DNA of 64,000 bases, from positions 21,288,629-21,352,628 of the forward strand of contig NC_081391.1 of NCBI RefSeq assembly GCF_030684315.1, written 5' to 3'. The position numbers and the translations under genes were made by a program. Shown here one piece after another: positions 468 through 63,830 of this stretch. Every line of letters begins with the position of its first letter. The first letter of the stretch is position 1. The stretch comes from Stegostoma tigrinum. Taxonomy: Eukaryota. The notes beneath the pieces were generated by a model that was not told where the DNA came from, did no database searches, and saw only the letters and a program-made list of their open reading frames with translations.

Positions 468-1646
<1,179 letters not shown>

Positions 1647-5559: not shown

Positions 5560-6770
<1,211 letters not shown>

Positions 6771-8716: not shown

Positions 8717-9652
8717 ATGGATGCTAGGGCAGTTGCTTGCTCCTCCTGCAAAATGTGGCAGTTGGGAGATGTGGCACACGTCTCCGCTGGCTACATCTGC
8801 GGGAAGTGCACCCAGCTACAGCTCCTTGAAAACCGTGTTAGGGAAATGGAGCTGGAGCTGGATGAACTACGGATCATTCGGGAGGCAGAGGGGGTAATTG
8901 AGAGGAGTTATCGGGAGTTGGTCACTCCTAAGGCTCAGGACGAGGATAGATGGGTTACAGTTAGGGGGAGGAAAGGGGACAGACAGACAGTGCAGAGATC
9001 CCCTGTGGGCATTCCCCTCAGCAATAAGTATACCGTTTTGGATACTGCTGGGGGGGTTGACCTACCAGAGGAAAGCCATAGTAGTCAGTTCTCTGGCACT
9101 GAGCCTGACACTGTGGCAAAGAAGGGAAGGGGGCAGAATAGAAAAGTACTCGTGGTAGGGGACTCGATAGTTAGGGGAATCGACAGGAGATTTTGTGGGC
9201 AAGATCGGGATTCCCGGAAGGTATGTTGCCTCCCTGGTGCCAGGGTCCGGGACGTCTCCGATCGGGTGTATAAAGTTCTGAAAGGGGAGGGTGAACAGCC
9301 AGAAATCGTGTTACATATTGGCACAAATGATATAGCCAGAAATAGGTTTGAGGATATAAAAAGTGATTTCAGGGAGTTAGGATGGAAGCTGCAGAGCAGG
9401 ACGAACAGAGTAGTGTTCTCTGGTTTACTACCGGTGCCACGAGATAGCGAGGTGAGGAACAGGGAGCGGGCGCAGCTGAACACGTGGCTACGCAGCTGGT
9501 GTAGGAGGGAGGGTTTCAGATATGTTGATAATTGGGATGCCTTCTGGGGAAGGTGGGACCTGTACAAGAAGGACGGGTTGCATCTGAACTGGAAGGGGAC
9601 CAATGTCCTGGGTGGAAGGTTTGCTCGAGTAGTTCGAGAGGGTTTAAACTAG
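8717..9652 (+). CDS. CR1 ORF1p (311 aa): zinc finger, coiled coil and SGNH esterase domain
   Basis: CSSC...CGKC; heptad-like LQLLENRVREMELELDELR; SGNH blocks VVGDS, PGA, HIGTND, DGLH. Confidence 0.93.
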   Translation: MDARAVACSSCKMWQLGDVAHVSAGYICGKCTQLQLLENRVREMELELDELRIIREAEGVIERSYRELVTPKAQDEDRWVTVRGRKGDRQTVQRSPVGIPLSNKYTVLDTAGGVDLPEESHSSQFSGTEPDTVAKKGRGQNRKVLVVGDSIVRGIDRRFCGQDRDSRKVCCLPGARVRDVSDRVYKVLKGEGEQPEIVLHIGTNDIARNRFEDIKSDFRELGWKLQSRTNRVVFSGLLPVPRDSEVRNRERAQLNTWLRSWCRREGFRYVDNWDAFWGRWDLYKKDGLHLNWKGTNVLGGRFARVVREGLN

Positions 9653-12542
9653 TATGGCAGGGGGGTGGGAACCTGAGCTGTATACCAGAGGTGAGCGTTG
9701 ATGCAGGTGAGGCAGTAGCAAGAGGTAGACCAGCTAGTGGGAAGGATTTTCCTGGGAAGGAACCAAGGGATCGGTTAAAGTGTGTTTGCTTTAATGCAAG
9801 GAGTATCAGGAATAAAAGTGATGAACTTAGAGCATGGATCAGTACCTGGTGCTATGATGTTGTGGCCATAACAGAGACATGGGTTTCTCATGGGCTGGAA
9901 TGGTTGCTGGATATTCCAGGGTTTAGAACATTTAAAAAGAATAGGGAGGGGGGAAAAAGAGGAGGGGGTGTAGCACTACTAATCAGAGAGGGTATCACAG
10001 CTACAGAAGCTTCCATTGTCGAGGAAGATCTGCCTACTGAGTCAGTATGGGTGGAAATTAGGAACAGCAAGGGAGTAGTCACCTCGTTAGGGGTTTACTA
10101 CAGGCCCCCCAATAGCAGCAGGGAGATTGTAGAAAGCATAGGTCGACAGATTTTGGAAAAGTGTGCACGCAGTAGGGTTGTTGTAATGGGTGACTTTAAC
10201 TTTCCTAATATTGATTGGAACCTCCTTCGAGCAGAAGGATTTGAATGGAGCTGTTTTTGTAAGGTGTGTTCAGGAGGGTTTCCTAACGCAGTACGTTGAC
10301 AGGCCGACGAGGGGAGAGGCCATTCTAGACTTGGTGCTCGGAAACGAGCCGGGGCAGGTATCAGATCTTGTGGTGGGAGAGCATTTTGGTGATAGTGACC
10401 ATAACACTCTCTCATTCTACATAGCTATGGAGAAGGAGAGGATTAGGCAGAATGGGAGGATATTTAATTGGGGAAGAGGAAACTATGATGCGATTAGACA
10501 CGAGTTAGGAAGCATGGACTGGGAGCAGTTGTTCCATGGTAAGGGAACTATAGACATGTGGAGATGGTTTAAGGAACAGTTGTTGGGAGTGATGAGTAAA
10601 TATGTCCCTCTGAGACAGGCAAGACGGGGTAAGATAAAGGAACCTTGGATGACGAGAGCGGTGGAGCTTCTAGTGAAAAGGAAGAAGGTAGCTTACATAA
10701 GGTGGAGGAAGCTAGGGTCAAGTTCAGCTAGAGAGGATTACATGCAGGCAAGGAAGGAGCTCAAAAATGGTCTGAGGAGAGCCAGGAGGGGGCACGAGAA
10801 AGGCTTGGCAGAAGGAATCCGGGAAAACACAAAGGCATTTTACACTTACGTGAGGAATAAGAGAATGGTCAAAGAAAGAGTAGGGCCGATCAGGGATAGC
10901 ATAGGGAACTTGTGTGTGGAGCCTGAGGAGGTAGGGGAAGCCCTAAATGAGTTTTTTGCTTCTGTCTTTACGAAAGAAACGACCTGTGTAGTGAATGAAA
11001 CCTTTTGAAGAGCAGGTGTGCATGCTGGAATGGATAGAGATAGAGGAAGCTGATGTACTGAAAATTTTGTCAAACATTAAGATTGACAAGTCGCCAGGCC
11101 CGGATCAGATTTGTCCTCGGCTGCTTTGGGAAGCGAGAAATGCAATTGCTTCGCCACTTGCGAAGATCTTTGCATCCTCGCTCTCCACTGGAGTCGTACC
11201 TGAGGACTGGAGAGAGGCAAATGTAATTCCTCTCTTCAAGAAAGGAAATAGGGAAATCCCCGGCAATTATAGACCGGTAAGTCTCACGTCTGTCGTCTGC
11301 AAGGTGTTAGAAAGGATTCTGAGGGATAAGATTTATGACCATCTGGAAGAGCATGGCTTGATCAAATACAGTCAACACGGCTTTGTGAGGGGTAGGTCAT
11401 GCCTTACAAACCTTATCGAGTTTTTTGAGGATGTGACTAGTAAGGTTGATGAGGGTCAAGCTGTGGATGTGGTGTATATGGACTTCAGTAAGGCATTTGA
11501 TAAGGTTCCCCATGGAAGGCTCATTCAGAAGGTCAGGAGGAATGGGATACAGGGGAACTTAGCTGCTTGGATACAGAATTGGCTGGCCAACAGAAGACAG
11601 CGAGTGGTAGTAGAAGGAAAATATTCTGCCTGGAAGTCAGTGGTGAGTGGGGTTCCACAGGGCTCTGTCCTTGGGCCTCTACTGTTTGTAATTTTTATTA
11701 ATGACTTGGACGAGGGAATTGAAGGATGGGTCAGCAAGTTTGCAGACGACACAAAGGTCGGAGGTGTCGTTGACAGTGTAGAGGGCTGTTGTAGGCTGCA
11801 GCGGGACATTGACAGGATGCAGAGATGGGCTGAGAGGTGGCAGATGGAGTTCAACCTGGATAAATGCGAGGTGATGCATTTTGGAAGGTCGAATTTGAAA
11901 ACTGAGTACAGGATTAAGGATAGGATTCTTGGCAGCGTGGAGGAACAGAGGGATCTTGGTGTGCAGATACATAGATCCCTTAAAATGGCCACCCAAGTGG
12001 ACAGGGTTGTTAAGAAAGCATATGGTGTTTTGGCTTTCATTAACAGGGGGATTGAGTTTAAGAGTCGTGAGATCTTGTTGCAGCTCTATAAAACTTTGGT
12101 TAGACCGCACTTGGAATACTGCGTCCAGTTCTGGGCGCCCTATGATAGGAAAGATGTGGATGCTTTGGAGAGGGTTCAGAGGAGGTTTACCAGGATGCTG
12201 CCTGGACTGGAGGGCTTATCTTACGAAGAGAGGTTGACTGAGCTCGGTCTCTTTTCATTGGAGAAAAGGAGGAGGAGAGGGGACCTAATTGAGGTATACA
12301 AGATAATGAGAGGCATAGATAGAGTCGATAGCCACAGACTATTTCCCAGGGCAGAAATGGCTAGCACGAGGGGTCATAGTTTTAAGCTGGTTGGTGGAAA
12401 GTATAGAGGGGATGTCAGAGGCAGGTTCTTTACGCAGAGAGTTGTGAGAGCATGGAATGCGTTGCCAGCAGCAGTTGTGGAAGCAAGGTCATTGGGGTCA
12501 TTTAAGAGACTGCTGGACATGCATATGGTCACAGAAATTTGA
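9643..12542 (+). CDS. CR1 ORF2p (APE endonuclease plus reverse transcriptase), interrupted by two apparent +1 T insertions (10240-10242, 11003-11006)
   Basis: FNARS, AITETW, GGGVALL, YRPP, MGDFN, SDHN endonuclease motifs; NYRPVSLTS, QHGF, DFSKAFD, PQGS, FADD RT motifs across three frames. Confidence 0.92.
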
Positions 12543-15220: not shown

Positions 15221-15413
15221 CCAATCACAGAATAACCATCCAGACCTGGCTCTCATCTCCACCTCTGATCAGCTCTGCTTAACACACCCTCCCCCTCTCT
15301 CTCATTGGTGCCTGTTTGCAGGGGTGGTTCCTGATTGGCCACCAGCAACTGTCAGTCATCATCAGTTCTGCCTCTCTCTGTGTGACTGCAGGATGGTCCC
15401 AGGACTATAAATA
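15221..15413 (+). promoter_or_regulatory. Ferritin C promoter
   Basis: CCAAT 15221, inverted CCAAT (ATTGG) 15304 and 15334, TATAAATA 15406-15413, 77 nt before ATG. Confidence 0.75.
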
Positions 15414-15482
15414 CAAGAGCCTGTGGGAGAGAGAGACTTAGTTCTAGAGTTTTCTTGGTGCTTGTGAGCAGGAATAGTGAAG

Positions 15483-17758
15483 ATGGTTTCCCAAGTGTGT
15501 CAGAACTACCACCAGGACTGTGAGGATGCTGTTAACAAGCAGATCAACCTGGAGCTCTATTCCTCCTATGTTTACCTCTCCATGGTGAGCTTTGTGGAAT
15601 TGAAGCCTGTGCTATGATAGTGTTGACCTGTTTGGTTTTTATGCTGGGTTAATGAATTAGCTGTAACATGTATTATTTTCTGTGGCCCTTCCCCTGTTGT
15701 AATCTAGTGCAGGTCTTATCACTGACTCTCTGTTCAAAACTTGATCACTGTCTTCATGTCCAACTGGCTCCTGGATGTGGATGCCCAGCTTGCTGTCTCT
15801 GGACAATGTAACCCTTGGTGATTTTTTTCATCTAACTCTGGAGGGATGATCTGGTCTTGGTCAATAATTAATTTTTGTAAAACTTTGGTTGTATTCCTTT
15901 TCTCAACAAAAGCTTTTCCTGACACAAATATACTCCTTTTTTAAAACCTTGCCCTATTCACCGGACTGTCTTGTGCTCAAGATGTCAAGTTCCCTGAACT
16001 AAAAGAACAGCTGCTGCTAGACATTAAACACTAACAAAAATAGCTAGAAAAGCTCTACAGAGCTGGAAGAAATCCAAGCTCTGGGTCCATTGACCCTTTC
16101 TCAGAAGTGGCTTTGAGCTATGCAATGTGAGGAAAGGGGCACATTTTCAGACTATGTACGTGTTTTTTTTTCTTTCTCTCTCTAACAAAGCAGTTAAAAT
16201 TCTGTGGAGTGGGTGGTAGGACACTGCGGTTATTCAGGTGGGTGATAGTGATAATGAGACTGCTGACTGAGCTTTCTGGTTGTGTTAATGAACACATGTC
16301 CCTTCATTCAGTTGGACAGGGGCCGAACTGGTCTCCACCTCCTGAACAATAGTGTTTCTAACCTGCAGAGCAGGGATGTCTAATGGCTCTAGACAGCTCT
16401 CCCCTTCATCATCCATGGAAGGTGACTTCCTGCTTTGTCTGTTTTTTTAACCACTTAAATGTGGAATCCAGATGGTGCCCAGGTTAGTTCCAGAGTGAGG
16501 AGTGTCATTCATGAATTTCAGACAGTTTCCTTTTAGCCTCTCTTCCCACAGTTCTCTTACTTTGACCGGGATGATGTTGCCCTGCATCACTTTGCTGAGT
16601 TCTTCAAGGAGCAGTCCCATGAGGAACGGGAACACGCTGAGAAACTGATGGCATTCCAGAATAAACGTGGAGGTCGAGTCCTCCTGCAGGACATTAAGGT
16701 TAGATTCTGAAGCCTTCTGTTTGCAGCTTTTTGTGAGCAGCTACAATCGACTGGTATCTCCATCTATTTAGCTTTAGCCTTGAACAAATACTGTGTGAAG
16801 GGGAGGGTGTTCACCAAAATAGGATTCCTTTAGGTTGAAAGGAAATACTCTGCACTTATGAGGGCAATTGAGAGGAACCAGAATAGTGAGTAGATATCAA
16901 TGTGAATGACTCTCCTTCAGACAGAATGAGGTAACAAAAGCTAAGACAGGAAATTGTTGCACTGTGGAAAGTAGCAGTGTCCAGCCTTTCTGAATCTGGA
17001 AGATGTTTCTAACACCACAATAGTGAAGCCAGGAACTACTTCCATTGGTACCTATTCTCTACATGTGAATTCTGAGAATCTACATTAACAGTAGAATGTG
17101 TTTAGAAAATTTGTTATTCCCTCAGTACAAAATCTAGTTGTTGTCTTCAAATTAAAGTTGGTTTGCAGTACCTCCCCTACAATGATGAGGGATAACTAAC
17201 TGATCAGATGTAGACTGATGATACAACTGCCTGCTGAACTGTGCTTTCTGTTCCTGCTTCCCTCCCTCCAGAAGCCAGAGCAGGATGAGTGGGGCAGTGG
17301 TCTGGAGGCAATGCAGAGAGCTCTGCAGATGGAGAAGGATGTGAACCAGAGTCTGCTGGATCTGCACAAACTCGCCTCTGGCCACACTGACCCTCATGTG
17401 AGTTTGTAAATTTTCTTCTTGGAAGAAAGTGGTGTGTTTGTGCACTCTCTGGGTAAAAATCCAATTACCTTCTCCCAGCCTCCTGCAGGCTGTTAAAACA
17501 AACTTACAAATGCATCACCTCAGTGGACCTCCACCTGGTTGTGATGGTCACATCTGTCATGGGGGTCACTTTCAGACACTTTTGATCCTCTGGATTAATT
17601 TTCTCTTCCAGCTGTGTGACTTCCTGGAGAGGCAATACTTGGATGAGCAAGTGAAGATGATCAAGAAGCTGGGAGATCACATCACCAACCTGAAGAGACT
17701 GGGAGCCCCTGACAATGGCATGGGAGAGTACCTGTTTGACAGGCTCACACTCGGCTGA
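15483..17758 (+). CDS. Ferritin unit C, intact 173 aa. Exons 15483-15584, 16552-16698, 17272-17397, 17612-17758
   Basis: [34 protein letters not shown]...DRLTLG*; canonical splice sites; ATTAAA polyA signal at 17827. Confidence 0.95.
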
Positions 17759-22127: not shown

Positions 22128-22135
22128 TATAAATA
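22128..22135 (+). promoter_or_regulatory. TATA box of unit D; upstream CCAAT region deleted
   Basis: TATAAATA; junction TTTTCAA|TTGCCAGTC at ~22069 removes the CCAAT-box segment present in other units. Confidence 0.65.
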
Positions 22136-22201
22136 CAGAGCTTGTCGGGGAGCAACTCAGTTCTCGGGTGGTCTTGGTTTTAATGAACAAGGCTAGTGAT
22201 G

Positions 22202-24610
22202 ATGGCCTCCCAAGTGTGTCAGACCTACCACAAGGACTGTGAGGATGCTGTGAACAAACAGATCAACCTGGAGCTTTATTCCTCCTATGTTTACCTCTCC
22301 ATGGTGAGACTTGTGATCTTGAATGGTCTATTTCAGTGTTAGGGCTGTGATATGATTGTACTGAGCCTTTAAGTGGCTTCTTGCTCAATGATTTAGTACT
22401 ACCATATATCTTGTCTGTTGTCCTTCCTGGAATGAATCCTGTGAGTGCTCTTAATACTAATTCTGTAGCAATTTTAAGCTTGTCTTGTGTTGGAGCTGGC
22501 TCTTGTCTAGGAGTCCCCAGTATGTTGTAATTCTGGGCAGAGCACATTTTTGGTGCTGAGGGATGGCCTGGTTCTGCTTCTCAATTCAACTCCTCCTTCC
22601 ATGTTGATATCAATGGCCCATTTATATTTGAAATCATTTACATCCTTGTGGAAGCCTGCATCAGTCCAAATCTAACTTTTTATATCTTGTCCTTTTAATG
22701 AAGCCTTTTTTTTAATAAGCATCCTAACTGTGATTAACTACTGGAAATAAAAGACTAAAATGAGCTGCTGGAAAAGCTTAGTGGGTCTGGTAGGATCTGT
22801 GGTGAGAAATCAGTTCCTGTTTTTGGTCCAGTGACCTTTCCTTCATGGTTTTTAGTTGCTAATTATGAGGAGCAGACTTTTTCCACTCCCAAGATGGATT
22901 ATCTGGAACAAAAATCAGTCACTGTCTCTGTGCAGATGAGGTGTTAGGACAGTGGGGCTAAATCAGATGAGTGATGTTGGTAATGTGAGGAGCTCAGATT
23001 TCAGCTTCTCTTGGTCAACATGCACATGCCCCTTTGTTCAGTTGGACAATGCCCTGATTGGCTTCCAGCACTGGGTAATAGTGTTTCTGACCTGCAGTGC
23101 AGGGATGTCTAATGCCTGTTGCCAGCTGTGACCGTCACCGTGCACTGTCTCACCAAGTCACCGACCAGCGGTTGTAGCGGGTGCTACTTAATCTTTATTT
23201 CTAGATGTTTGAACAAATGTCTGTCTAGTTTAGTTTATGGATGACCATAAATGTAAATACCTGTCTTCTTACTGTCCATCTAACTTCCATTTCGTGAGCA
23301 AAACCAAGCTGAATTGAGTGAAATTTACTTCCCATTTTGTCTGTTTGCAGTTCTCTCTCTTTGACCGGGATGATGTTGCCCTCCATCACTTTGCTGAGTT
23401 CTTCAAGGAGCAGTCCCATGAGGAGCGGGAACACGCTGAGAAACTGATGGCATTCCAGAATAAACGTGGAGGCTGAGTCCTCCTGCAGGACATCAAGGTT
23501 GGATTCTGAGAATGTCTGTCTGTTTGCAGCTTTTTGAGCAGCTACAATCGACTGGTATCTCCATCTATTTAGCTTCAGGATTGATCAAATACTATGTCAA
23601 GGGCAAGTTGTTCACCAAAACAGGATTTGTTTAGGGAAAAGGGAAATACTTTGCATTTGTGACTCAATAGCAGAAGGCAATTCAGATGATCCAGGCTACT
23701 GGATGGTGAGCACATGTCCCTGTATGTGACTCTATATGGACAAGGTGAGGTAACAAAAGGTAAGGCTGAGAACTTGCAGCTACAAAAAGCAGCAGCATCC
23801 AACCTCACTACATCCAGAAGAGGTTTGTAATGCCTTGGGACCATTCTGGTCACTACATCAAACAGTAAAGCAAGGGATTACTTCCATTGCGACTGATTCT
23901 AGATACGACTTCTTTCAGAATTCACAGTAACAGTGAGATATGTTAACATTTCTTTATTCTCAGACCAGCATAAAATCTAGAGGGTTTTTGTATCCAAGTA
24001 AAATTTTTTGTCTGAATGTAACCCCTGGAAATGATGAGGGATAACTAACTGATCAGATGTAGACTAATGATAGAACTGCCTGCTGAGCTGTGCTTTCTGT
24101 TCCTGCTTCCCTCCCTTCAGAAGCCAGAGCAGGATGAGTGGGGCAATGGTCTGGAGGTGATGCAGAGAGCTCTGCAGATGGAGAAGGATGTGAACCAGAG
24201 TCTGCTGGATCTGCACAAACTTGCCTCTGACCACATAGACCCTCATGTGAGGTTTTATCCCTTTCCTGGAAGAAAGTGATCTGTTTGTGTACTTCCAGGG
24301 TGGGGAATCCAATTATTTTTCTACCTGCCTCCTGCAGGATGTTTAAACAAAACCTTGTGAAGGCATCACTTGCATGCCCCTCCCCCATAGTGAGGTGATG
24401 GTCACTTCTGTCATGGGAGGTCACTGACATTTTTTGATCCTTGTTGGATTAATTTTGTCTTCCAGCTGTGATTTCATGGAGAGGCACTACTTGGATAAGC
24501 AAGTGAAGATGATCAAGAAGCTGGGAGATCACATCACCAACCTGAAGAGACTGGGAGCCCCTGACAATGGCATGGGAGAGTACATGTTTGACAGGCTGCC
24601 ACTCCGTTGA
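22202..24610 (+). pseudogene. Ferritin unit D pseudogene. Exons 22202-22303, 23351-23497, 24121-24246, 24466-24610
   Basis: CGA>TGA stop at 23474-23476; 2-nt deletion at the start of exon 4 (CTG TGA); truncated promoter. Confidence 0.93.
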
Positions 24611-30046: not shown

Positions 30047-30238
30047 CCAATCACAGAATAACCATCCAGACCTGGCTCTCATCTCCACCTCTGATCAGCT
30101 CTGCTTAACACACCCTCCCCCTCTCTCTCATTGGTGCCTGTATGCAGGGGTGGTTCCTGATTGGCCAGCAGCAACTGTCAGTCATCATCAGTTCTGCCTC
30201 CCTCTGGGTGAGTGCCGGTTGTCTCAGGAGTAGAAACA
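30047..30238 (+). promoter_or_regulatory. Ferritin E promoter with degraded TATA (TAGAAACA)
   Basis: Aligns with the other promoters; CCAAT boxes retained. Confidence 0.65.
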
Positions 30239-30306
30239 CAACAGCTTTGGGGATTGAGGCCTTTGTTCCAGAGTTGTCCTTGTGATTGTGAGCAGGAATA
30301 GTGAAG

Positions 30307-32694
<2,388 letters not shown>

Positions 32695-36096: not shown

Positions 36097-36289
36097 CCAA
36101 TCACAGAATAACCATCCAGACCTGGCTCTCATCTCCACCTGTGATCAGCTCTGCTTAACACACCCTCCCCCTCTCTCTCATTGGTGCCTGTATGCATGGG
36201 TGGTTCCTGATTGGCTAGCAGCAATTGTCAGTCATCATCAGTTCTGCCTCTCCATGGGTGAGTGCAGGATGGTCCCAGGAGTATAAATA
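36097..36289 (+). promoter_or_regulatory. Ferritin F promoter
   Basis: CCAAT 36097, two ATTGG, TATAAATA 36282-36289. Confidence 0.72.
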
Positions 36290-36336
36290 CAGAGCTTGTG
36301 GAAGAGCAACTCACTTTTTGAGTGGGAATAGTGAAG

Positions 36337-39287
36337 ATGGCCTCCCAAGTATGTCAGAACTACCACAAGGACTGTGAGGATGCTGTTAACAAGCAGATCA
36401 ACCTGGAGCTCTATTCCTCTTATGCTTACCTCTCCATGGTGAGGCTTGTGACATTGAAGACCTGACCTCAAATTGAAGCCTGTGATATATGTGCATTGAC
36501 TCTCTTAGGTTTATTTTCTTGCCTAGTTTCATGATTTAGTTGTAGCATGTGTTTTGGTCTGTGGCCCTTCCCTGACTGAATCCCAGTGAAATGGTTCACA
36601 CTGACTCTGTTGGAAACTTGATGTTTGTCTTGTATTGCAACTGACTCCTGGGTGACAATGGCCACTTTGTTATCTCTGGACAATGTACCCCTTAGTGACT
36701 TTTCTCCTTCCTCTGAAGGGATGAGCTGATGTTGCTGATAAACCTATATTTTCCTTAAATTTGGTTGCAATTTTCTTTTAAAGAGAAGATTTCCCTGGTG
36801 AATTTTTCTATGCAAAATGTACTTGCACTCTTAAAACTTTGCCCCATTCACCAGGCTGCTGTCTGATTTGGCCCTAAATGAGTTCTTTCTTTTCTGAAAG
36901 AAAAGCAACTGCTGGAAATTAGAAACAGCAACAAAAACAGCTGGAATAGCTTTACAGATCTGGCAGGATTTAGAGAAATCAGTTCATGTTTTGGGTCCAG
37001 TGACTCTTCCGCAGAAGTCATCCTCCTCCTAGCTATTCAGTAGGAGGAAAGACAAGTGTGGCATGTTTTCACACTCCAAATGTGAATTACAGGAAAAAAA
37101 ACCAGTTAGAACTCAGTGCTGAGTAGATGGTAGGACAGAGTGGGGTTATTCAGGTGGGTGATGTTTGTAATGCTGGCGCTCACTGCGATTCATGGCTCTG
37201 TCCATCCACGTGCTCTTTCTTACAGTGCTGTGTCCTTGATCGGCTGGTTGTGTGTCCTCTCTTTCTTCTATCTTCCATGGGACAAGACTTTCTGCCTGTC
37301 TATCATGTTCCAGTAATTAAATGTCCAGTTCTGGTTGCCATACTAACAAAAGGATGTGAATGCTTTGGAAGGGGGTGCAGAGGAGGTTCACCAGGATGTT
37401 GCCTGGTATGGAGGGTGTGAGCTAGGAAGACAAGTTGAGTACATGAGCATTATTTTCATTAGAAGGTGGCAGATTTGGGGGTGGGGTCCTGATTGAGCTC
37501 CTCAAATTCATGAGGGGTGTAGACAAGGTGGATAGCAAGAAGCTTTTTCCTTGAGTGGGGAACTCAATTACTAGGGGTCATGAGCTCAAAGTAAGAGCAG
37601 GGAAGTTTTTTTCAGGGAAGATTGGGTGAGATTCCTTTCAGTGTGGAAACAGGCCCTTTAGCTCAGTGCACACTGGCCCTTGAAGCATCCCACCCAGACC
37701 CATTCCCCTATAACCCCCATACCTCGGAATGCGACGGGCAATTTATCATGTGGATATGTTTGGAAAGCTCTTTACGCAGAGGTTGGAGGGTGCCTGGCAC
37801 ACATTGCCTGTGGAAGTGGTAGATGCAGTCACACTAGTGTCTTAAGATCTATCTGGACAGGTACATGGATGGGCAGGGAGCAAAGGGATAGAGACCCTAT
37901 GAAAATAGATGACCAATTTGAGACCAGATGTCGCTCGGTGCAGCCTTGGAGGGTCAAAGAGCCTGTTCCTGTGCTGCAGCTTTTTGTCCTTAAATGTGGA
38001 ATCAAGATGGTGACTGGGTTAGTTTCTGGTTGAGGAGTGCCATTGAATTTCAGATACACTTCCCCTTCCTGCCTGTTTCTTCCCCCACAGTTCTCTTACT
38101 TTGACCGGGATGATGTTGCCCTGCGTCACTTTGCTGAGTTCTTCAAGGAGCAGTCCCATGAGGAGCGAGAACATGGAGAGAAGCTGATCACATTCCAGAA
38201 TAAACGTGGAGGTCGTGTCCTTCTGCAGGACATCAAGGTTGGATTCAAAATTTTTTCAGCTCAATACAATGGACTGATATCTCAATATGATCAGGTTCAG
38301 GATTAGACAAATACTGTGTGAATGGGAGGTTGCTCACCACAATAAGATTCCCTTCACTAAAAAGAAACACTTTTTTGCACTTGTGATTGAACAATAGTTG
38401 GCAATTGTGATAATCCAGTATTCTGGATGGTGAGCAAATATCGGTGTCTGCTGCAGCTTTGGACAAGATGAGGTGTCAAAAGGGAAAACAGAAGTCTTTC
38501 AGGTGCTGAATTCATCAGAATGAAGCCTTTATACATCTAGAAGATGTTTCTGATGCCTTGAGATCACTCTGATCACAGCCTAGCAGGATCTGTTTAGAAA
38601 TGTCCCCTTCAAGAACAGTACCAAATACAGCATGTGTTTTACCAAGGTCAAGTTGGCCTGTAGTACCTCCCCTACAATGATGAGGGATAACTAACTGATC
38701 AGATGTAGACTAATGATACAACTGCCTGCTGAGCTGTGCTTTCTGTTCCTGCTTCCCTCCCCGCAGAAGCCAGAGCAGGATGAGTGGGGCAGTGGCTTGG
38801 AGGCAATGCAGAGAGCTCTGCAGATGGAGAAGGATGTGAACCAGAGTCTGCTGGATCTGCACAAACTGGCCTCTGGCCACACGGACCCTCATGTGAGTGT
38901 GGTGTATTTAAATCTGGGTTTTTGAATAAAAACAGGGATCAGACACTTGGTCCTTTTTGTTCGCCACAAGATCTCCTTTGACATTGTGGCGGGTTTTCTT
39001 GGGTTGTACCAAGATCCTCCTGTTTCTAATACTGAGCACTTTCTCGTGTGTATTTGGCAATCTCCATGACATCACTTCACTGTTCGGTCTCCCAATCTGC
39101 ATTTGGTCAGATTTAACCAGTTCCCCTCTTTGCTTTCCAGCTGTGTGACTTCCTGGAGAGGCACTACTTGGATGAGCAAGTGAAGATGATCAAGAAGCTG
39201 GGAGATCACACCACCAACCTGAAGAGACTGGGAGCCCCTGACAATGGCATGGGAGAGTACCTGTTTGACAGGCTCTCACTCAGCTGA
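36337..39287 (+). CDS. Ferritin unit F, intact 173 aa. Exons 36337-36438, 38091-38237, 38767-38892, 39141-39287
   Basis: MASQVCQNY...[14 protein letters not shown]...DRLSLS*; canonical splice sites. Confidence 0.92.
37315..37985 (+). mobile_element. Decayed CR1 3' fragment in intron 1 of F (also ~49410-49930 and ~61875-62555)
   Basis: CAGTTCTGG...GTGCAGAGGAGGTTCACCAGGATGTTGCCTGG ([11 protein letters not shown]) and CR1-type tail. Confidence 0.7.
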
Positions 39288-43476: not shown

Positions 43477-43669
43477 CCAATCACAGAATAACCATCCAGA
43501 CCTGGCTCTCATCTCCACCTCTGATCAGCTCTGCTTAACACACCCTCCCCCTCTCTCTCATTGGTGCCTGTATGCAGGGGTGGTTCCTGATTGGCCAGCA
43601 GCAACTGTCAGTCATCATCAGTTCTGCCTCTCTCTGTGTGACTGCAGGATGGTCCCAGGACTATAAATA
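43477..43669 (+). promoter_or_regulatory. Ferritin G promoter
   Basis: CCAAT 43477, two ATTGG, TATAAATA 43662-43669. Confidence 0.75.
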
Positions 43670-43738
43670 CAAGAGCCTGTGGGAGCGAGAGACTTAGTTC
43701 TAGAGTTTTCTTGGTGCTTGTGAGCAGGAATAGTGAAG

Positions 43739-46129
<2,391 letters not shown>

Positions 46130-50039: not shown

Positions 50040-51252
50040 TTCTCTTACTTTGACCGGGATAATGTTGCCCTGCGTCACTTTGCTGAGTTCTTCAAGGAGC
50101 AGTCCCATGAGGAGCGGGAACACGCTGAGAACCTGATGGCTTTCCAGAATAAACGTGGGGGCCGAATCCTCCTGCAGGACATCAAGGTTAGATTCTGAAG
50201 CCTTCTGTTTGCAGCTTTTCGTGAAATACCACTCAATTGTGGCTCGCTCAATCTGTTTAGCTTCAGGGCTGAACAAATGCTGTATGAATGGGGGGGGTTG
50301 CTCACCACAATAAGATTCCCTTCACTAAAAGGAAACACTTTTGCACTTGTGATTGAACAACAGTTGGCAATTGTGATAATCCAGTATTCTGGATGGTGAG
50401 CACATATCGGTGTCTAACGCTGCTTTGGACAACATGAGGTGTCAAAAGGGAAAACAGAAATCTTTCAGGTGCGGAAAGCATCAGTATGAAGCCTTTATAC
50501 ATCTAAAGATGTTTCTGATGCCTTGATATCACTCTGATCACAGCATAGCAGGATCTGTTTAGAAATGTCCCCTTCAAGAACAGTACCAAATACAGCAGGT
50601 GTTTTACCAAGGTCAAGTTGGCCTGTAGTGCCTCCCCTACAATGATGAGGGGTAACTAACTGATCAGATGTAGACTAATGATACAACTGCCTGCTGAGCT
50701 GTGCTTTCTGTTCCTGCTTCCCTCCCTCCAGAAGCCAGAGCAGGATGAGTGGGGCAATGGTCTGGAGGCAATGCAGAGAGCTCTGCAGATGGAGAAGGAT
50801 GTGAACCAGAGTCTGCTGGATCTGCACAAACTGGCCCCTGGCCACACGGACCCTCATGTGAGTGTGGTGTATTTAAATCTGGGTTTCTGAATAAAAACAG
50901 GGATCAGACACTTGGTCCTTTTTGTTAGCCACAAGATCTCACTTGACATTGTGGAGGGTTTTCTTGGGTTATACCAAGATCCTCCTGTTTCTAAAACTGA
51001 GCACTTTCTCGAGTGTATTTGGCAATCTCCATGACATCACTTCACAGCTCGGTCTCCCAAGCTGCATTTGGTCAGATTTAACCAGTTCCCCTCTTTGCTT
51101 TCCAGCTGTGTGACTTCCTGGAGAGGCACTACCTGGATGAGCAAGTCATGATGATCAAGAAGCTGGGAGATCACATCACCAACCTGAAGAGACTGGGAGC
51201 CCCTGACAATGGCATGGGAGAGTACCTGTTTGACAGGCTCTCACTCGGCTGA
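50040..51252 (+). pseudogene. Ferritin unit H, orphan exons 2-4 (50040-50186, 50732-50857, 51106-51252); no promoter or exon 1
   Basis: Same deletion junction as B; all splice sites canonical and frames open. Confidence 0.85.
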
Positions 51253-55399: not shown

Positions 55400-55592
55400 C
55401 CAATCACACAATAACCATCCAGACCTGGCTCTCATCTCCACTTCTGATCAGCTCTGCTTAACACACCCTCCCCCTCTCTCTCATTGGTGCCTGTATGCAT
55501 GGGTGGTTCCTGATTGGCTAGCAGCAACTGTCAGTCATCATCAGTTCTGCCTCTCTCTGTGTGACTGCAGGATGGTCCCAGGACTATAAATA
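55400..55592 (+). promoter_or_regulatory. Ferritin I promoter
   Basis: CCAAT 55400, two ATTGG, TATAAATA 55585-55592. Confidence 0.75.
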
Positions 55593-55661
55593 CAAGAGCC
55601 TGTGGGAGAGAGAGACTTAGTTCTAGAGTTTTCTTGGTGCTTGTGAGCAGGAATAGTGAAG

Positions 55662-57959
55662 ATGGTTTCCCAAGTGTGTCAGAACTACCACAAGGACTGT
55701 GAGGATGCTGTTAACAAGCAGATCAACCTGGAGCTCTATTCCTCCTATGTTTACCTCTCCATGGTGAGCTTTGTGGAATTGAAGCCTGTGTGATAACAGT
55801 GTTGACCTGTTTGGGTTTTTACGCTGGGTTAATGAATTAGCTGTAACATGTATTATTTTCTGTGGCCCTTCCCCTGTTGCAATCTAGTGCAGGTCTTAAC
55901 ACTGACTCTCTGGTCAAGTTTTGAACATTGTCTTCATGTCCAACTGGCTCCTGGATGTGGATGCCCAGCTTGCTGTCTCTGGACAATGTAACCCTTGGTG
56001 ATTTTTCATCTAACTCTGGAGGGATGATCTGGTCTTGGTCGATATTTTTTTTTTTTTTTGTAAAACTTTGGTTGTATTCCTTTTCTCAACAAAAGCCTTC
56101 CCTGGTGGAAACTTTTCCTGACACAAATATACTCCTTTTTTAAAACCTTGCCCTATTCACTGGACTGTCTTGTGCTCAAGATGTAAAGTTCCCTGAACTA
56201 AAAGAACAGCTGCTGCTAGACATTAAACACTAACAAAAATAGCTAGAAAAGCTCTACAGAGCTGGAAGAAATCAAAGCTCTGGGTCCACTGACCCTTTCT
56301 CAGAAGTGGCTTTGAGCTATGCAATGTGAGGGAAGAGGCACATTTTCAGACTATGTATGTGTTTTTTTTCTTTCTCTCTAACAAAGCAGTTAAAATTCTG
56401 TGGAGTGGGTGGTAGGACACTGCGGTTATTCAGGTGGGTGATAGTGATAATGAGACTGCTGACTGAGCTTTCTGGTTGTGTTAATGAACACATGTCCCTT
56501 CATTCAGTTGGACAGGGGCTGAACTGGTCTCCACCTCCTGAACAATAGTGTTTCTAACCTGCAGAGCACGGATGTCTAATGGCTATAGACAGCTGTCCCC
56601 TTCATCATCCATGGAAGGTGACTTCCTGCTTTGTCTGTTTTTAACCACTTAAATGTGGAATCAAGATGGTGCCCAGGTTAGTTCCTGAGTGAGGAGTGTC
56701 ATTCATGAATTTCAGACAGTTTCCTTTTAGCCTCTCTTCCCACAGTTCTCTTACTTTGACCGGGATGATGTTGCCCTGCATCACTTTGCTGAGTTCTTCA
56801 AGGAGCAGTCCCATGAGGAACGGGAACACGCTGAGAAACTGATGGCCTTCCAGAATAAACGTGGAGGTCGAGTCATCCTGCAGGACATCAAGGTTAGATT
56901 CTGAAGCCTTCTGTTTGCAGCTTTTTGTGAGCAGCTACAATCGACTGGTATCTCCATCTATTTAGCTTTAGCCTTGAACAAATACTGTGTGAAGGGGAGG
57001 GTGTTCACCAAAATAGGATTCCTTTAGGTGAAAGGAAATACTCTGCACTTATGAGGGCAATTGAGGAACCAGAATAGTGAGTAGATATCAATGTGAATGA
57101 CTCTCCTTCAGACAGAATGAGGTAACAAAAGCTAAGACAGGAAATTGTTGCAGTGTGGAAAGTAGCAGTGTCCAGCCTTTCTGAATCTGGAAGATGTTTC
57201 TAACACCACAATAGTGAAGTCAGGAATTACTTCCATTGGTACCTATTCTCTACATGTGAATTCTGAGAATCTACATTAACAGTAGAATGTGTTTAGAAAA
57301 TTTGTTATTCTTTCAGTACAAAATCTAGTTGTTGTCTTCAAATTAAAGTTGGTTTGCAGTACCTCCCCTACAATGATGAGGGATAACTAACTGATCTGAT
57401 GTCGACTAATGACACAACTGCTTGCTGAACTGTGCTTTCTGTTCCTGCTTCCCTCCCTCCAGAAGCCAGAGCAGGATGAGTGGGGCAATGGTCTGGAGGC
57501 AATGCAGAGAGCTCTGCAGATGGAGAAGGATGTGAATCAGAGTCTGCTGGATCTGCACAAACTCGCCTCTGGCAACACTGACCCTCATGTGAGTTTGTAA
57601 ACTCTTTCTCTTTCCTTGGAAGAAAGTGGTGTGTTTGTGCACTCTCTGGGTTAAAAATCCAATTACCTTCTCCCAGCCTCCGGCAGGCTGTTAAAACAAA
57701 ACCTTTCCAAGGCATCACCCGAGTCCACATCTGCTTGGTGATGATGGTCACATCTGTGATGGGACGTCACTTTCAGACTCCTTTTTGATCATCTGGATTA
57801 TTTGTCTTCCAGCTGTGTGACTTCCTGGAGAGGCACTACTTGGATGAGCAAGTGAAGATGATCAAGAAGCTGGGAGATCACATCACCAACGTGAAGAGAC
57901 TGGGAGCCCCTGCCAATGGCACGGGAGAGTACCTGTTTGACAGGCTCACACTCAGCTGA
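55662..57959 (+). CDS. Ferritin unit I, intact 173 aa. Exons 55662-55763, 56746-56892, 57463-57588, 57813-57959
   Basis: MVSQVCQNY...[24 protein letters not shown]; canonical splice sites. Confidence 0.94.
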
Positions 57960-60400: not shown

Positions 60401-60593
60401 CCAATCACAGAATAACCATCCAGACCTGGCTCTCATCTCCACCTCTGATCAGCTCTGCTTAACACACCCTCCCCCTCTCTCTAATTGGTGCCTGTATGCA
60501 TGGGTGGTTCCTGATTGGCCAGCAGCAACTGTCAGTCATCATCAGTTCTGCCTCTCTCTGTGTGAGTGCAGGACGGCCCCAGGAGTATAAATA
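60401..60593 (+). promoter_or_regulatory. Ferritin J promoter
   Basis: CCAAT 60401, two ATTGG, TATAAATA 60586-60593. Confidence 0.7.
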
Positions 60594-60629
60594 CAGAGCT
60601 TGTGGGCGAGCAACTCAGTTCTAGAGTGA

Positions 60630-60840
60630 GAGATAATGGGAACTGCAAATGCTGGAGAATCCAAGATAATAAAATGTGAGGCTGGATGAACACAGCAGGC
60701 CAAGCAGCATCTCAGGAGAACAAAAGCTGACGTTTCGGGCCTAGACCCTTCAGAAGGGTCTCGGCCCGAAACGTCAGCTTTGGTGCTCCTGAGATGCTGC
60801 TTGGCCTGCTGTGTTCATCCAGCCTCACATTTTATTATCT
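60630..60840. mobile_element. Palindromic Penelope-type non-autonomous element in the J 5'UTR
   Basis: Inverted repeat 60664-60840 centred on 60752 (88-nt arms, few mismatches); TSD CTCAGTTCTAGAGTGA at 60614-60629 and 60839-60854. Confidence 0.88.
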
Positions 60841-60884
60841 CAGTTCTAGAGTGATCTTGGTTATAATCAGTAGGGATAGTGAAG

Positions 60885-63830
60885 ATGGCTTCCCCAGTGT
60901 GTCAGAACTACCACAAGGACTGTGAGGATGCTGTTCACAAACAGATCGACCTGGAGCTCTGTTCCTCCTATGTTTACCTCTCCACGGTGAGCCTTGTGAC
61001 ATTGAAGATCTGACCTCAAATTGAAGCCTGTGATATATTTGCATTGACCCTCAGGTTTATTTTCTTGCCTCGTTTAATGATTTAGCTGTAGCATGTGTTC
61101 TGGTCTGTGGCCCTTCCCTGAGTGAATCCAGTAAAATTGTTAACACCGACTCTGTTGGAAACTTGAAGTTTATGTTGTGTTCTAACTGAGTCATGGGCGA
61201 CATTTACCACTTATCTCTGGACAATGTACACCCTAGTGATTTTTCTTCATGCTGTGAAGGGATGAGCTGGCGTTGCTGATGAGCCTATACTTTTCTTAAA
61301 GTTGGTTGCAACTTTTTTGTTAGAAAAGCTTTCCCTCGTGTGAAAATTTCAAAGCAACATGTACTCTCACTCACTTTATGCAAAATGTACTCGCACTCTT
61401 AAAATGTTGCCCCATTCACCAGGCTGCCCTCTGCTCTGGCCCTAAATGAGTTTTTTTCTTTTCTAAAAGAACAGCAACTGCTGGAAATTAGAAACAGCAA
61501 CAAAAAGAGCTGGAATAGCTTTACAGATCTGGCAGGACTTAGAGAAATCAGTTCATGTTTTGGGTCCAGTGACTCTTCCTCAGAAGTAGGTTTCTCAGCT
61601 ATTCAGTAGGAGGAAGGACAAGTGTGGTATGTTTTCACACTCCAAATGTGAATTACTGAAAAAGAAACCAGTTAGAATTCAGTGCTGGGGAGAAGGTAGG
61701 ACAGAGTGGGGTTATTCAGGTGGGTGATGTTTGTAATGCTGGACCTCACTGCAAATCCTGGCCGTTGGTGGGTGTGTGTGTGTGTGTGTCCCTGATTGGC
61801 TGGTTGTGTGCCCTCTGTTTAGGATGTAATCCATGGAAAAAGCCTTCCTGCTTTACAGATCTGGCAGGATCACATTCCAGTAATTGCATGTACAGTTCTG
61901 GTCGCCACATTACCAAAAGGATGTGAATGCTTTGGAAGGGGGTGCAGAGGAGGTTCACCAGGATATTGCCTGGTATGGAGGGTGCTAGCTATGAAGAAAG
62001 GATGAGTAGATTAGGATTATTTTCATGAGAAGGAGGGCGATTGAGGGGATGGTGGGTGGCCTGATTTGAGGTCGACAAAATCGTGAGGGGCATAGACAAG
62101 GTGGACAGCAAGAAGCTTTTTCGCCAGAGTGAGACTCACTTTCTAGGGTTCACGAGTTCAATGTAAGAGGAGGAAAGTTTAGCGGGGAATCAGGTTAGAT
62201 TCCCACAGTGTGGAAAGAGGCCTTTTAGCCCAAAAGTACCACACCGCCCCTTTGAAGCATCCCAAACAGACCCATCCCCTATAACCCCCACACCTCTGAA
62301 CCCTACGGGCAATTTATCATGTGGATATGTGTGGAGAAGTTCTTTACCCAGAGATTGGTGGGTGCCTGGCACATGCTGCCCGTGGAGGTGGTAGACGCAG
62401 TCACGCTCGTGTCTTTTAAGATGTGTGGGGACAGGTACATGGATGAGCAGGGAGCAAAGAGATACAAACCCTTAGAAAAGAGATGACAGATTTAGACCGG
62501 ATCTCAATCGGTGCAGGCTTGGATGGTCAAAGAGCCCGTTCCTGTGCTGTAATTTTCTTTGTTCTTAAATGTGGAATCAAGATGGTGACCAGGTTAGTTT
62601 CTGATTGAGGAGTGCCATTGATGAATTTCAGCTATGTTTCCTTTTCCTGCCTTTCTCCTCCCCACAGTTCTCTTACTTTGACCGGGATTATGTTACCCTG
62701 CGTCACTTTGTTGAGTTCTTCAAGGCGCAGTCCCATGAGGAGCGAGAACATGCTGAGAAACTGATCACGTTCCAGAATAAACGTGGAGGCCAAGTCCACC
62801 TGCAGGACATCAAGATTGGATTCTAACCTTTTTTAATCTGCTCACGACAATTGACTGGTATCTCAATATGTTCAGCTTCAAGACTGAACAAATACTATGA
62901 ACGGGAGGCTGTTCACCACAATGAGGCTCCTTTAAAAGGAAATACTTTGCACTTGTGATTGAATAACAGTCAGCAATTGTGATCATCCAGAATACTGGAT
63001 GGTGAGCAAATGTCAGCGTCTAACGCTTCTTTGGACAAGATGAGCTATCAAAAGGTAAGACAGAAAATTGTCAGGTGTGGGAAGCATTTGATGCAGCCCT
63101 TCCACATCTAGAAGATGTTTCTGATGCCTGGGGATCATTCTGATCACTGAATAGTAGGATATGTTTGGAAAATTTCCTCTTCAAGAAAAGAATAGTACAA
63201 CATCTGGCAGGTGTTTAACCAAAGTAAAGTTGGTCTGAGGTACCTCCCCTACAATGATGAGGGATAACTAACTGATCAGATGTAGACGAATGATAGAACT
63301 GCCTGCTGAGCTGTGCTTTCTGTTCCTGCTTCCATCCCTCCAGAAGCCAGAGCAGGATGAGTGGAGCAATGGTCTGGAGGCAATGCAGAGAGCTCTGCAG
63401 ATGGAGAAGGATGTGAACCAGAGTCTGCTGGATCTGCACAAACTCGCATCTGGCCACACTGACCCTCATGTGAGTTTGTAAACTTTCTTCTTGGAAGAAA
63501 GTGGTGTGTTTGTGCACTCTCTGGGTAAACATCCAATTACCTTCTCCCAGCCTCCTGCAGGCTGTTAAAACAAACATACAAATGCATCACCTCAGTGGAC
63601 CTCCACATGGTGGTGATGGTCACATCTGTCATGGGGGTCACTTTCAGACACTTTTGATCCTCTGGATTAATTTTCTCTTCCAGCTGTGTGACTTCCTGGA
63701 GAGGCAATACTTGGATGAGCAAGTGAAGATGATCAAGAAGCTGGGAGATCACATCACCAACCTGAAGAGACTGGGAGCCCCTGACAATGGCATGGGAGAG
63801 TACCTGTTTGACAGGCTCACACTCAGCTGA
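60885..63830 (+). pseudogene. Ferritin unit J, probable pseudogene. Exons 60885-60986, 62668-62814, 63344-63469, 63684-63830
   Basis: Exon 2 donor GT>AT at 62815; many missense changes in exons 1-2; hairpin insertion with upstream ATGs in the 5'UTR. Confidence 0.87.
61772..61789. repeat. (GT)n microsatellite
   Basis: About nine GT units in J intron 1. Confidence 0.75.

Follow-up and report, generated by a model that had tools for sequence, protein, structure and literature searches.

The tandem array of ferritin genes that spans 1.6 Mb of contig NC_081391.1 of Stegostoma tigrinum (array 1, C50:19.95-21.55 Mb, C50 being our name for this contig) has no iron-responsive element (IRE) in any of its 202 copies, these copies being matches to exon 1 that include one pair from a split hit; the same scans found both of our controls, a ferritin gene of M type and another of H type. 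In textbooks, the cytosolic ferritin of vertebrates is, as a rule, under the control of the IRE/IRP system. We consider it fairly likely that this IRE-less, M/H-like array provides a bulk iron store for the ovary or oocyte, with an output that would depend on the number of copies and on their common promoter and not on IRP1/IRP2.

Ferritin Copies in the Window

The window, that is, the whole 64-kb stretch of DNA from which the analysis started (NC_081391.1:21288629-21352628), was taken out of this 1.6-Mb array and contains ten ferritin copies, A to J, all lying on the + strand. Their features, in positions of the window, are the following.

468..1646, + strand: exons 2-4 of copy A, whose exon 1 is situated 750 nt ahead of the window; the copy is intact in the genome tile
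5560..6770, + strand: copy B, exons 2-4 only, without exon 1
15304..15338, + strand: two inverted CCAAT boxes of the copy C promoter (ATTGG at 15304 and 15334)
15406..15413, + strand: TATA box of copy C, 77 nt ahead of the ATG (15483)
15438..15482, + strand: Inr-like site of copy C (predicted start about 15440) and predicted 5' leader of about 43 nt, without IRE
15483..17758, + strand: copy C, intact, 173 aa; exons 15483-15584, 16552-16698, 17272-17397 and 17612-17758
22128..24610, + strand: copy D, pseudogene; TATA 22128, ATG 22202; exon 2 interrupted by a stop and exon 4 by a frameshift, distal promoter replaced
30130..32694, + strand: copy E, intact ORF, 173 aa; ATG 30307; mutated TATA (TAGAAA) at the usual place
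36180..39287, + strand: copy F, intact ORF, 173 aa; TATA 36282, ATG 36337; leader shortened by a deletion
43560..46129, + strand: copy G, intact, 173 aa; TATA 43662, ATG 43739
50040..51252, + strand: copy H, exons 2-4 only, without exon 1
55483..57959, + strand: copy I, intact, 173 aa; TATA 55585, ATG 55662
60484..63830, + strand: copy J, probable pseudogene; TATA 60586, ATG 60885; non-GT donor of intron 2

A preliminary description of this DNA had given the distance between TATA box and ATG as about 55-77 nt in copies C, D, E, F, G and I. Counted from the first T of TATAAA, the distance is indeed 77 nt in C, G and I, 74 nt in D and 55 nt in F; in copy E a mutated box occupies this place. The leader of copy J holds an element of 210 nt (about 60629-60838) that consists of near-palindromic halves and is accompanied by a target-site duplication of 15 nt (span 60614-60853), and because this insertion sits in the leader the TATA-ATG spacing reaches 299 nt; the same spacing is common to three array copies. 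Between copies B and C there is a long LINE-like element (8717-12542), presumably of CR1 type, with open frames of 311, 193 and 515 aa, and reverse-transcriptase fragments similar to it recur between ferritin copies.

Distribution of Iron-Responsive Elements

Our rule-based scan required a C bulge, a lower stem and an upper stem of 5 bp in which no more than one defect was tolerated, and covered canonical loops in the 600 nt upstream of each copy. A relaxed scan with 20 loop variants, a list that presumably follows SIREs-type rules, likewise gave no IRE when applied to the final 130 nt ahead of the ATG in all 202 copies. The M-type control is one of four single divergent ferritin genes that lie beyond array 1 (C50:21.57-21.67 Mb); it is situated on the minus strand 56 kb past the array end and has a perfect IRE 121 nt before its ATG (21609327), and a perfect IRE is present also in the H-type gene on contig C20. 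When the whole tile (C50:19.86-21.70 Mb of the 3.2-Gb genome, one 33-kb N gap inside the array left out) was subjected to the strict scan over its 1.807 Mb and on both strands, the sole match was the IRE of the M-type control, so that an upstream exon carrying a canonical IRE is unlikely within array 1. This result argues against an upstream noncoding exon with an IRE, one of the findings that the preliminary description had named as contrary to its claim of IRE absence.

Within the window, three approaches agree with that claim, namely that no hairpin with a CAGUGN loop and a C bulge occurs in the leaders, copy J included. The Rfam search, which had been proposed as a check, gave nothing at gathering score and no IRE family at E<=10; the bare core C-N5-CAGUGH occurs 28 times vs 34.5 expected by chance, and never in a leader; and the seven leaders fold no better than their shuffles (z from -0.25 to 0.83), whereas the IRE-bearing control reaches z -2.76. 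The absence of IREs is thus supported for the whole of array 1. The three other flanking ferritin genes have no IRE within 5 kb. Among the four flanking genes, one has Lys61/Gln65, one shows a GC-rich 5' region with the usual place of the ATG empty and a possible N-terminal extension, and one is without most ferroxidase residues.

In the genome at large, Rfam found IREs at two ferritin genes, a minimum figure because 82 candidates were scored out of 1.5 million. Away from these two genes, the core of the ferritin IRE is matched exactly at four more places, C2:129502472, C33:9627358, C59:1516686 and C61:3046913, which are possibly retrocopies. The array leader, as a candidate decayed copy of the IRE of the neighbouring M-type gene, can be aligned with that IRE region in such a way that UAGUG falls over CAGUG; the alignment has borderline significance, with p 0.03-0.06 when anchored and 0.10-0.20 when local, and falls in part within an internal 13-nt repeat.

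Promoter and Predicted Leader of Array 1

The consensus promoter of array 1 has inverted CCAAT boxes at -149, -102, -72 and -45 relative to TATA, and 120 of the 123 intact genes possess two to four such boxes within 260 nt, vs a background of 0.32. The exact TATAAATA lies 55-79 nt ahead of the ATG in 74/123 intact genes, and an Inr pattern follows at +30 to +34 from TATA in 61 of the 95 intact genes having a TATA match. From the TATA and Inr elements we predict a start site near TATA+30, and their spacing therefore gives a predicted leader of about 43 nt. For 23 copies chosen for their divergent introns, the median identity is 0.72 over TATA plus leader and 0.64 over -200..-100, vs 0.49-0.52 for introns and far upstream sequence.

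The three predicted introns of copy C are joined in spliced contigs of runs X1 and X2. Contigs of runs X1, X2 and X4, which are presumed to be RNA and come from two other organisms and two studies, with no tissue on record, cover copy C from about 15455-15471, so reaching 12-28 nt upstream of the ATG into its leader, and show no upstream joint. On the control M-type gene, contigs of the same runs end about 51 nt before the ATG, short of its IRE; since they stop there before the real 5' end, contig ends do not map the start.

CPE-driven control of maternal mRNA is not supported, since CPE-like motifs, which are typical of stored maternal mRNA, were present in a single one out of 100 short 3' UTRs. 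An sR1 C/D-box in intron 2, a sub-threshold Rfam match in nine window copies, was rejected: it has its full box pattern in 1/123 intact genes and lies in a region that is not conserved across the array.

Genes and Proteins of Array 1

The 202 copies comprise 123 that are intact, 49 with four exons but broken and 30 partial; the intact ones follow the four-exon plan of vertebrate ferritin genes, with GT-AG introns and an ORF of 170-180 aa. Homologues of array 1 carry PF00210, and the nearest named proteins come from carpet sharks. The order of exons along the array shows repeated multi-gene units as well as inversions, and an unplaced contig, C216, holds many more copies of the same type, as an extra array or an alternative haplotype outside the count of 202. 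When synteny was compared with that of mammalian FTL, C50 proved to bear one TIP49 (RUVBL-type) gene of the two present, at 18.55 Mb, and glycogen synthase genes were situated on C20 and C33.

When residues are numbered on the pig H chain (P0179), E27, Y34, E61, E62, E107 and Q141 are retained in all 123 intact genes and H65 in 122 of them. These seven positions are what we take to be the ferroxidase centre, which array 1 would therefore keep in full, as expected of a subunit of H/M type. Among solved structures, the best matches of an array-1-type protein are M ferritins (bullfrog M, PDB 1mfr/4mjy). Pairwise dN/dS is about 0.30 (1500 random pairs from 110 distinct coding sequences), a value to which gene conversion probably contributes, because exon 3 is about 0.98 identical among copies whose introns are unalignable and at background identity. 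This pattern suggests gene conversion restricted to exons.

Near the C-terminus, His173 is replaced by Leu in 122/123 intact genes. In the cleft that binds NCOA4, the position of Arg23 is occupied by Lys in 122/123 and that of Ala19 by Asp in 112/123. Binding of NCOA4 to human FTH1 is abolished by R23A and A19Y (PMC11076521); the shark substitutions, of which that from Arg23 to Lys is conservative, differ from those studied there.

A Second Array with Lys62

The same contig bears a second tandem ferritin array (array 2, C50:12.99-14.37 Mb), 5.6 Mb apart from array 1, which gave no fewer than 150 matches to exon 1 when 150 out of 412 candidates were scored. Of these at least 150 genes, 20 leaders and 11 genes were sampled. 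No canonical IRE was present in any of the 20 leaders, each searched over 1.5 kb, and a weak non-canonical hairpin with a UAGUG loop and a mismatch was present in five. Lys62 and Glu141 are present in each of the 11 genes that were read; E27, H65 and Glu107 are kept. Lys62 marks the L-chain's loss of its ferroxidase site (PMC11396501) and the change from Glu62 to Lys abolishes activity in FTHL17 (PMC7760355); judged by Lys62, and leaving orthology to FTL aside, the predicted subunit of array 2 is L-like.

The two arrays have in common a block of 40-60 nt before TATA (blastn E 4e-5). In shuffling tests of this block, p was <=0.004 in 4 of 4 cases; by comparison, the two genes with an IRE gave 0.94 and 0.97, and the other three flanking genes 0.02-0.21.

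Evolution of the Arrays

The proteins of array 1 fall into a single clade that takes in carpet, mackerel, ground, horn, cow and saw sharks (support 97/99, or 91/99 with fewer rows), in trees that have no Greenland shark sequence among their rows and no mammalian FTL. A ray sequence nests inside this clade on a long branch. In other sharks, the homologue lists show clusters with 127, 138 and 180 members. These comparisons of sequence indicate that array 1 represents an ancient, pan-shark tandem expansion. The IRE-bearing M-type gene belongs to a shark-and-ray clade of its own (100/98).

In phylogenetic terms, from where did array 1 derive? Protein trees place arrays 1 and 2 together without strong support (93/78 and 89/49). 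Three further groupings all withstood AU tests: array 1 with the M-type IRE gene, both arrays with that gene, or array 1 with the H type. A sister position of array 1 to the neighbouring M-type gene is absent from the best tree but not rejected (p-AU 0.23), and the promoters of the two are unrelated (p 0.94). Clusters of turtle M-type ferritins list 21-48 member sequences and may be parallel expansions; some reptile ferritins are also changed at positions 62 and 173.

Comparison with Known Ferritin Systems

In Greenland shark, 155 copies of FTL and 179 of FTH1 have been reported, in clusters that are common to white shark, and the largest cluster is described as expressed ovary-specifically (bioRxiv 10.1101/2024.09.09.611499). 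The expansion of Greenland and white shark resembles ours in having hundreds of clustered ferritin copies, in its ancient origin and in its sharing between sharks, and the array family presented here very probably is the same family. A second genome report on Greenland shark reportedly also mentions a gain of ferritin copies. In the main text of the preprint, 'iron' does not occur as a word, and IREs, promoters and catalytic residues are not dealt with (10.1101/2024.09.09.611499). Our search of the literature, in which few subscription journals were covered, brought up no publication in which sharks are said to have lost the IRE or to possess a common promoter or a partner array with Lys62. 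What appears to be new is the regulatory anatomy, with the loss of IREs and the pairing of H-like with L-like arrays, the expansion and the ovary-specific expression of its largest cluster being already known from Greenland and white sharks.

With vertebrate ferritin M (bullfrog M, fish middle subunit) array 1 shares the four-exon gene and a predicted complete ferroxidase centre, but it differs in its approximately 200 tandem copies, the lack of an IRE, Leu at 173 and Lys at the Arg23 position. IREs are missing also from FTMT (PMC8393899, PMC7760355), which is, however, intronless and mitochondrial, whereas the shark genes have introns; FTHL17 is expressed in germ cells, is multi-copy in mouse and has undergone the same change from Glu62 to Lys as array 2 (PMC7760355). 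The shark genes are far more numerous than FTHL17 and FTMT, and the ferroxidase site is retained in array 1. The yolk ferritin of snails (Lymnaea, Biomphalaria) is similarly IRE-less and egg-linked and exists beside soma ferritins of IRE type; it is, however, encoded by a single gene, and the protein, which has a signal peptide and an insert of 42 aa, is made in the digestive gland and secreted (PMC10799875). Neither a signal peptide nor a 42-aa insert of the snail type was seen in the shark proteins, which have 173-176 aa and match cytosolic M ferritin colinearly, beginning at residue 1.

Possible Function of the Arrays

How would ferritin genes of this kind be used outside the canonical rule of IRE/IRP control of cytosolic ferritin (PMC11719527)? 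In the explanation that we favor, array 1 would escape repression by IRP1/IRP2, with short leaders devoid of IREs allowing translation independent of iron; the output of ferritin would be set by gene dosage and by the common CCAAT/TATA/Inr promoter; and the genes would supply a large iron store to ovary or oocytes, the expression in ovary being extrapolated from Greenland shark. The ferroxidase-active subunits of array 1 and the predicted ferroxidase-poor subunits of array 2 may then co-assemble in the manner of H/L heteropolymers. Of the bulk tissue-specific roles listed in the preliminary description, it is the oocyte role that gains from the ovary-specific expression of the largest Greenland-shark cluster (10.1101/2024.09.09.611499), and nothing in our results favored the antioxidant or the iron-withholding role in particular. 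This ovary basis consists of one preprint sentence on another species, with orthology to array 1 presumed. It should be weighed as well that 79/202 copies are broken or partial and that the spliced contigs of array type come from runs without a tissue record.

An extended form of this explanation is possible, though we hold it with clearly less confidence. The two arrays, with about 200 ferroxidase-active genes and at least 150 L-like ones with Lys62, would constitute a second, germline H/L ferritin system under one promoter, free of IRPs and, by virtue of the changes from Arg23 to Lys and from Ala19 to Asp, partly free of ferritinophagy, which would load very large yolky oocytes with iron by dosage as histone and rRNA repeats do.

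Alternatively, the IRE-less arrays could serve a somatic bulk role, antioxidant, anti-ferroptosis or in immune iron withholding. We regard this as unlikely: the full ferroxidase centre predicted for array 1 would suit such a role, as would spliced array-type contigs in RNA-like runs of two other organisms, whose tissue is not on record, but the sole statement on tissue that we found is the ovary-specific one for the largest Greenland-shark cluster (10.1101/2024.09.09.611499), and IRE-less ferritins elsewhere are tissue-restricted or egg-linked. Slightly less probable again is that the array reflects mostly birth-and-death churn in a recombination-prone region, its founder having lost the IRE passively and few copies being of consequence. 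The 79 broken or partial copies and the repeated units and inversions in exon order are consistent with churn, and homogenisation of exons, which clouds dN/dS, can mimic purifying selection; yet several orders of sharks share the clade, more than one species having large clusters of members, conservation of promoter and leader exceeds the intron background, and catalytic residues are near-invariant across the 123 intact copies. Least probable of all is that regulation by iron persists, whether by a non-canonical IRP site, by an upstream exon that escaped our scans or by transcription responsive to iron, to which the predicted nature of the start site, the uninformative contig ends, the borderline alignment to the neighbour's IRE region and the weak UAGUG hairpin in 5/20 array-2 leaders lend themselves, and against which stand the empty 20-loop scan of the last 130 nt of every array-1 copy, the lack of a strict IRE within the array part of the tile and leaders without a stable fold.

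For the biology of sharks, the arrays would mean that hundreds of intact, intron-bearing ferritin genes escape the IRE/IRP rule while two single-copy genes keep it. The loss of the IRE provides a mechanistic handle on the published but unexplained expansion of shark ferritins, and argues for reading this expansion as reproductive iron provisioning over a longevity trait. Paired arrays of ferroxidase-active and Lys62 subunits would, moreover, constitute an independent re-invention of the H/L division of labour.
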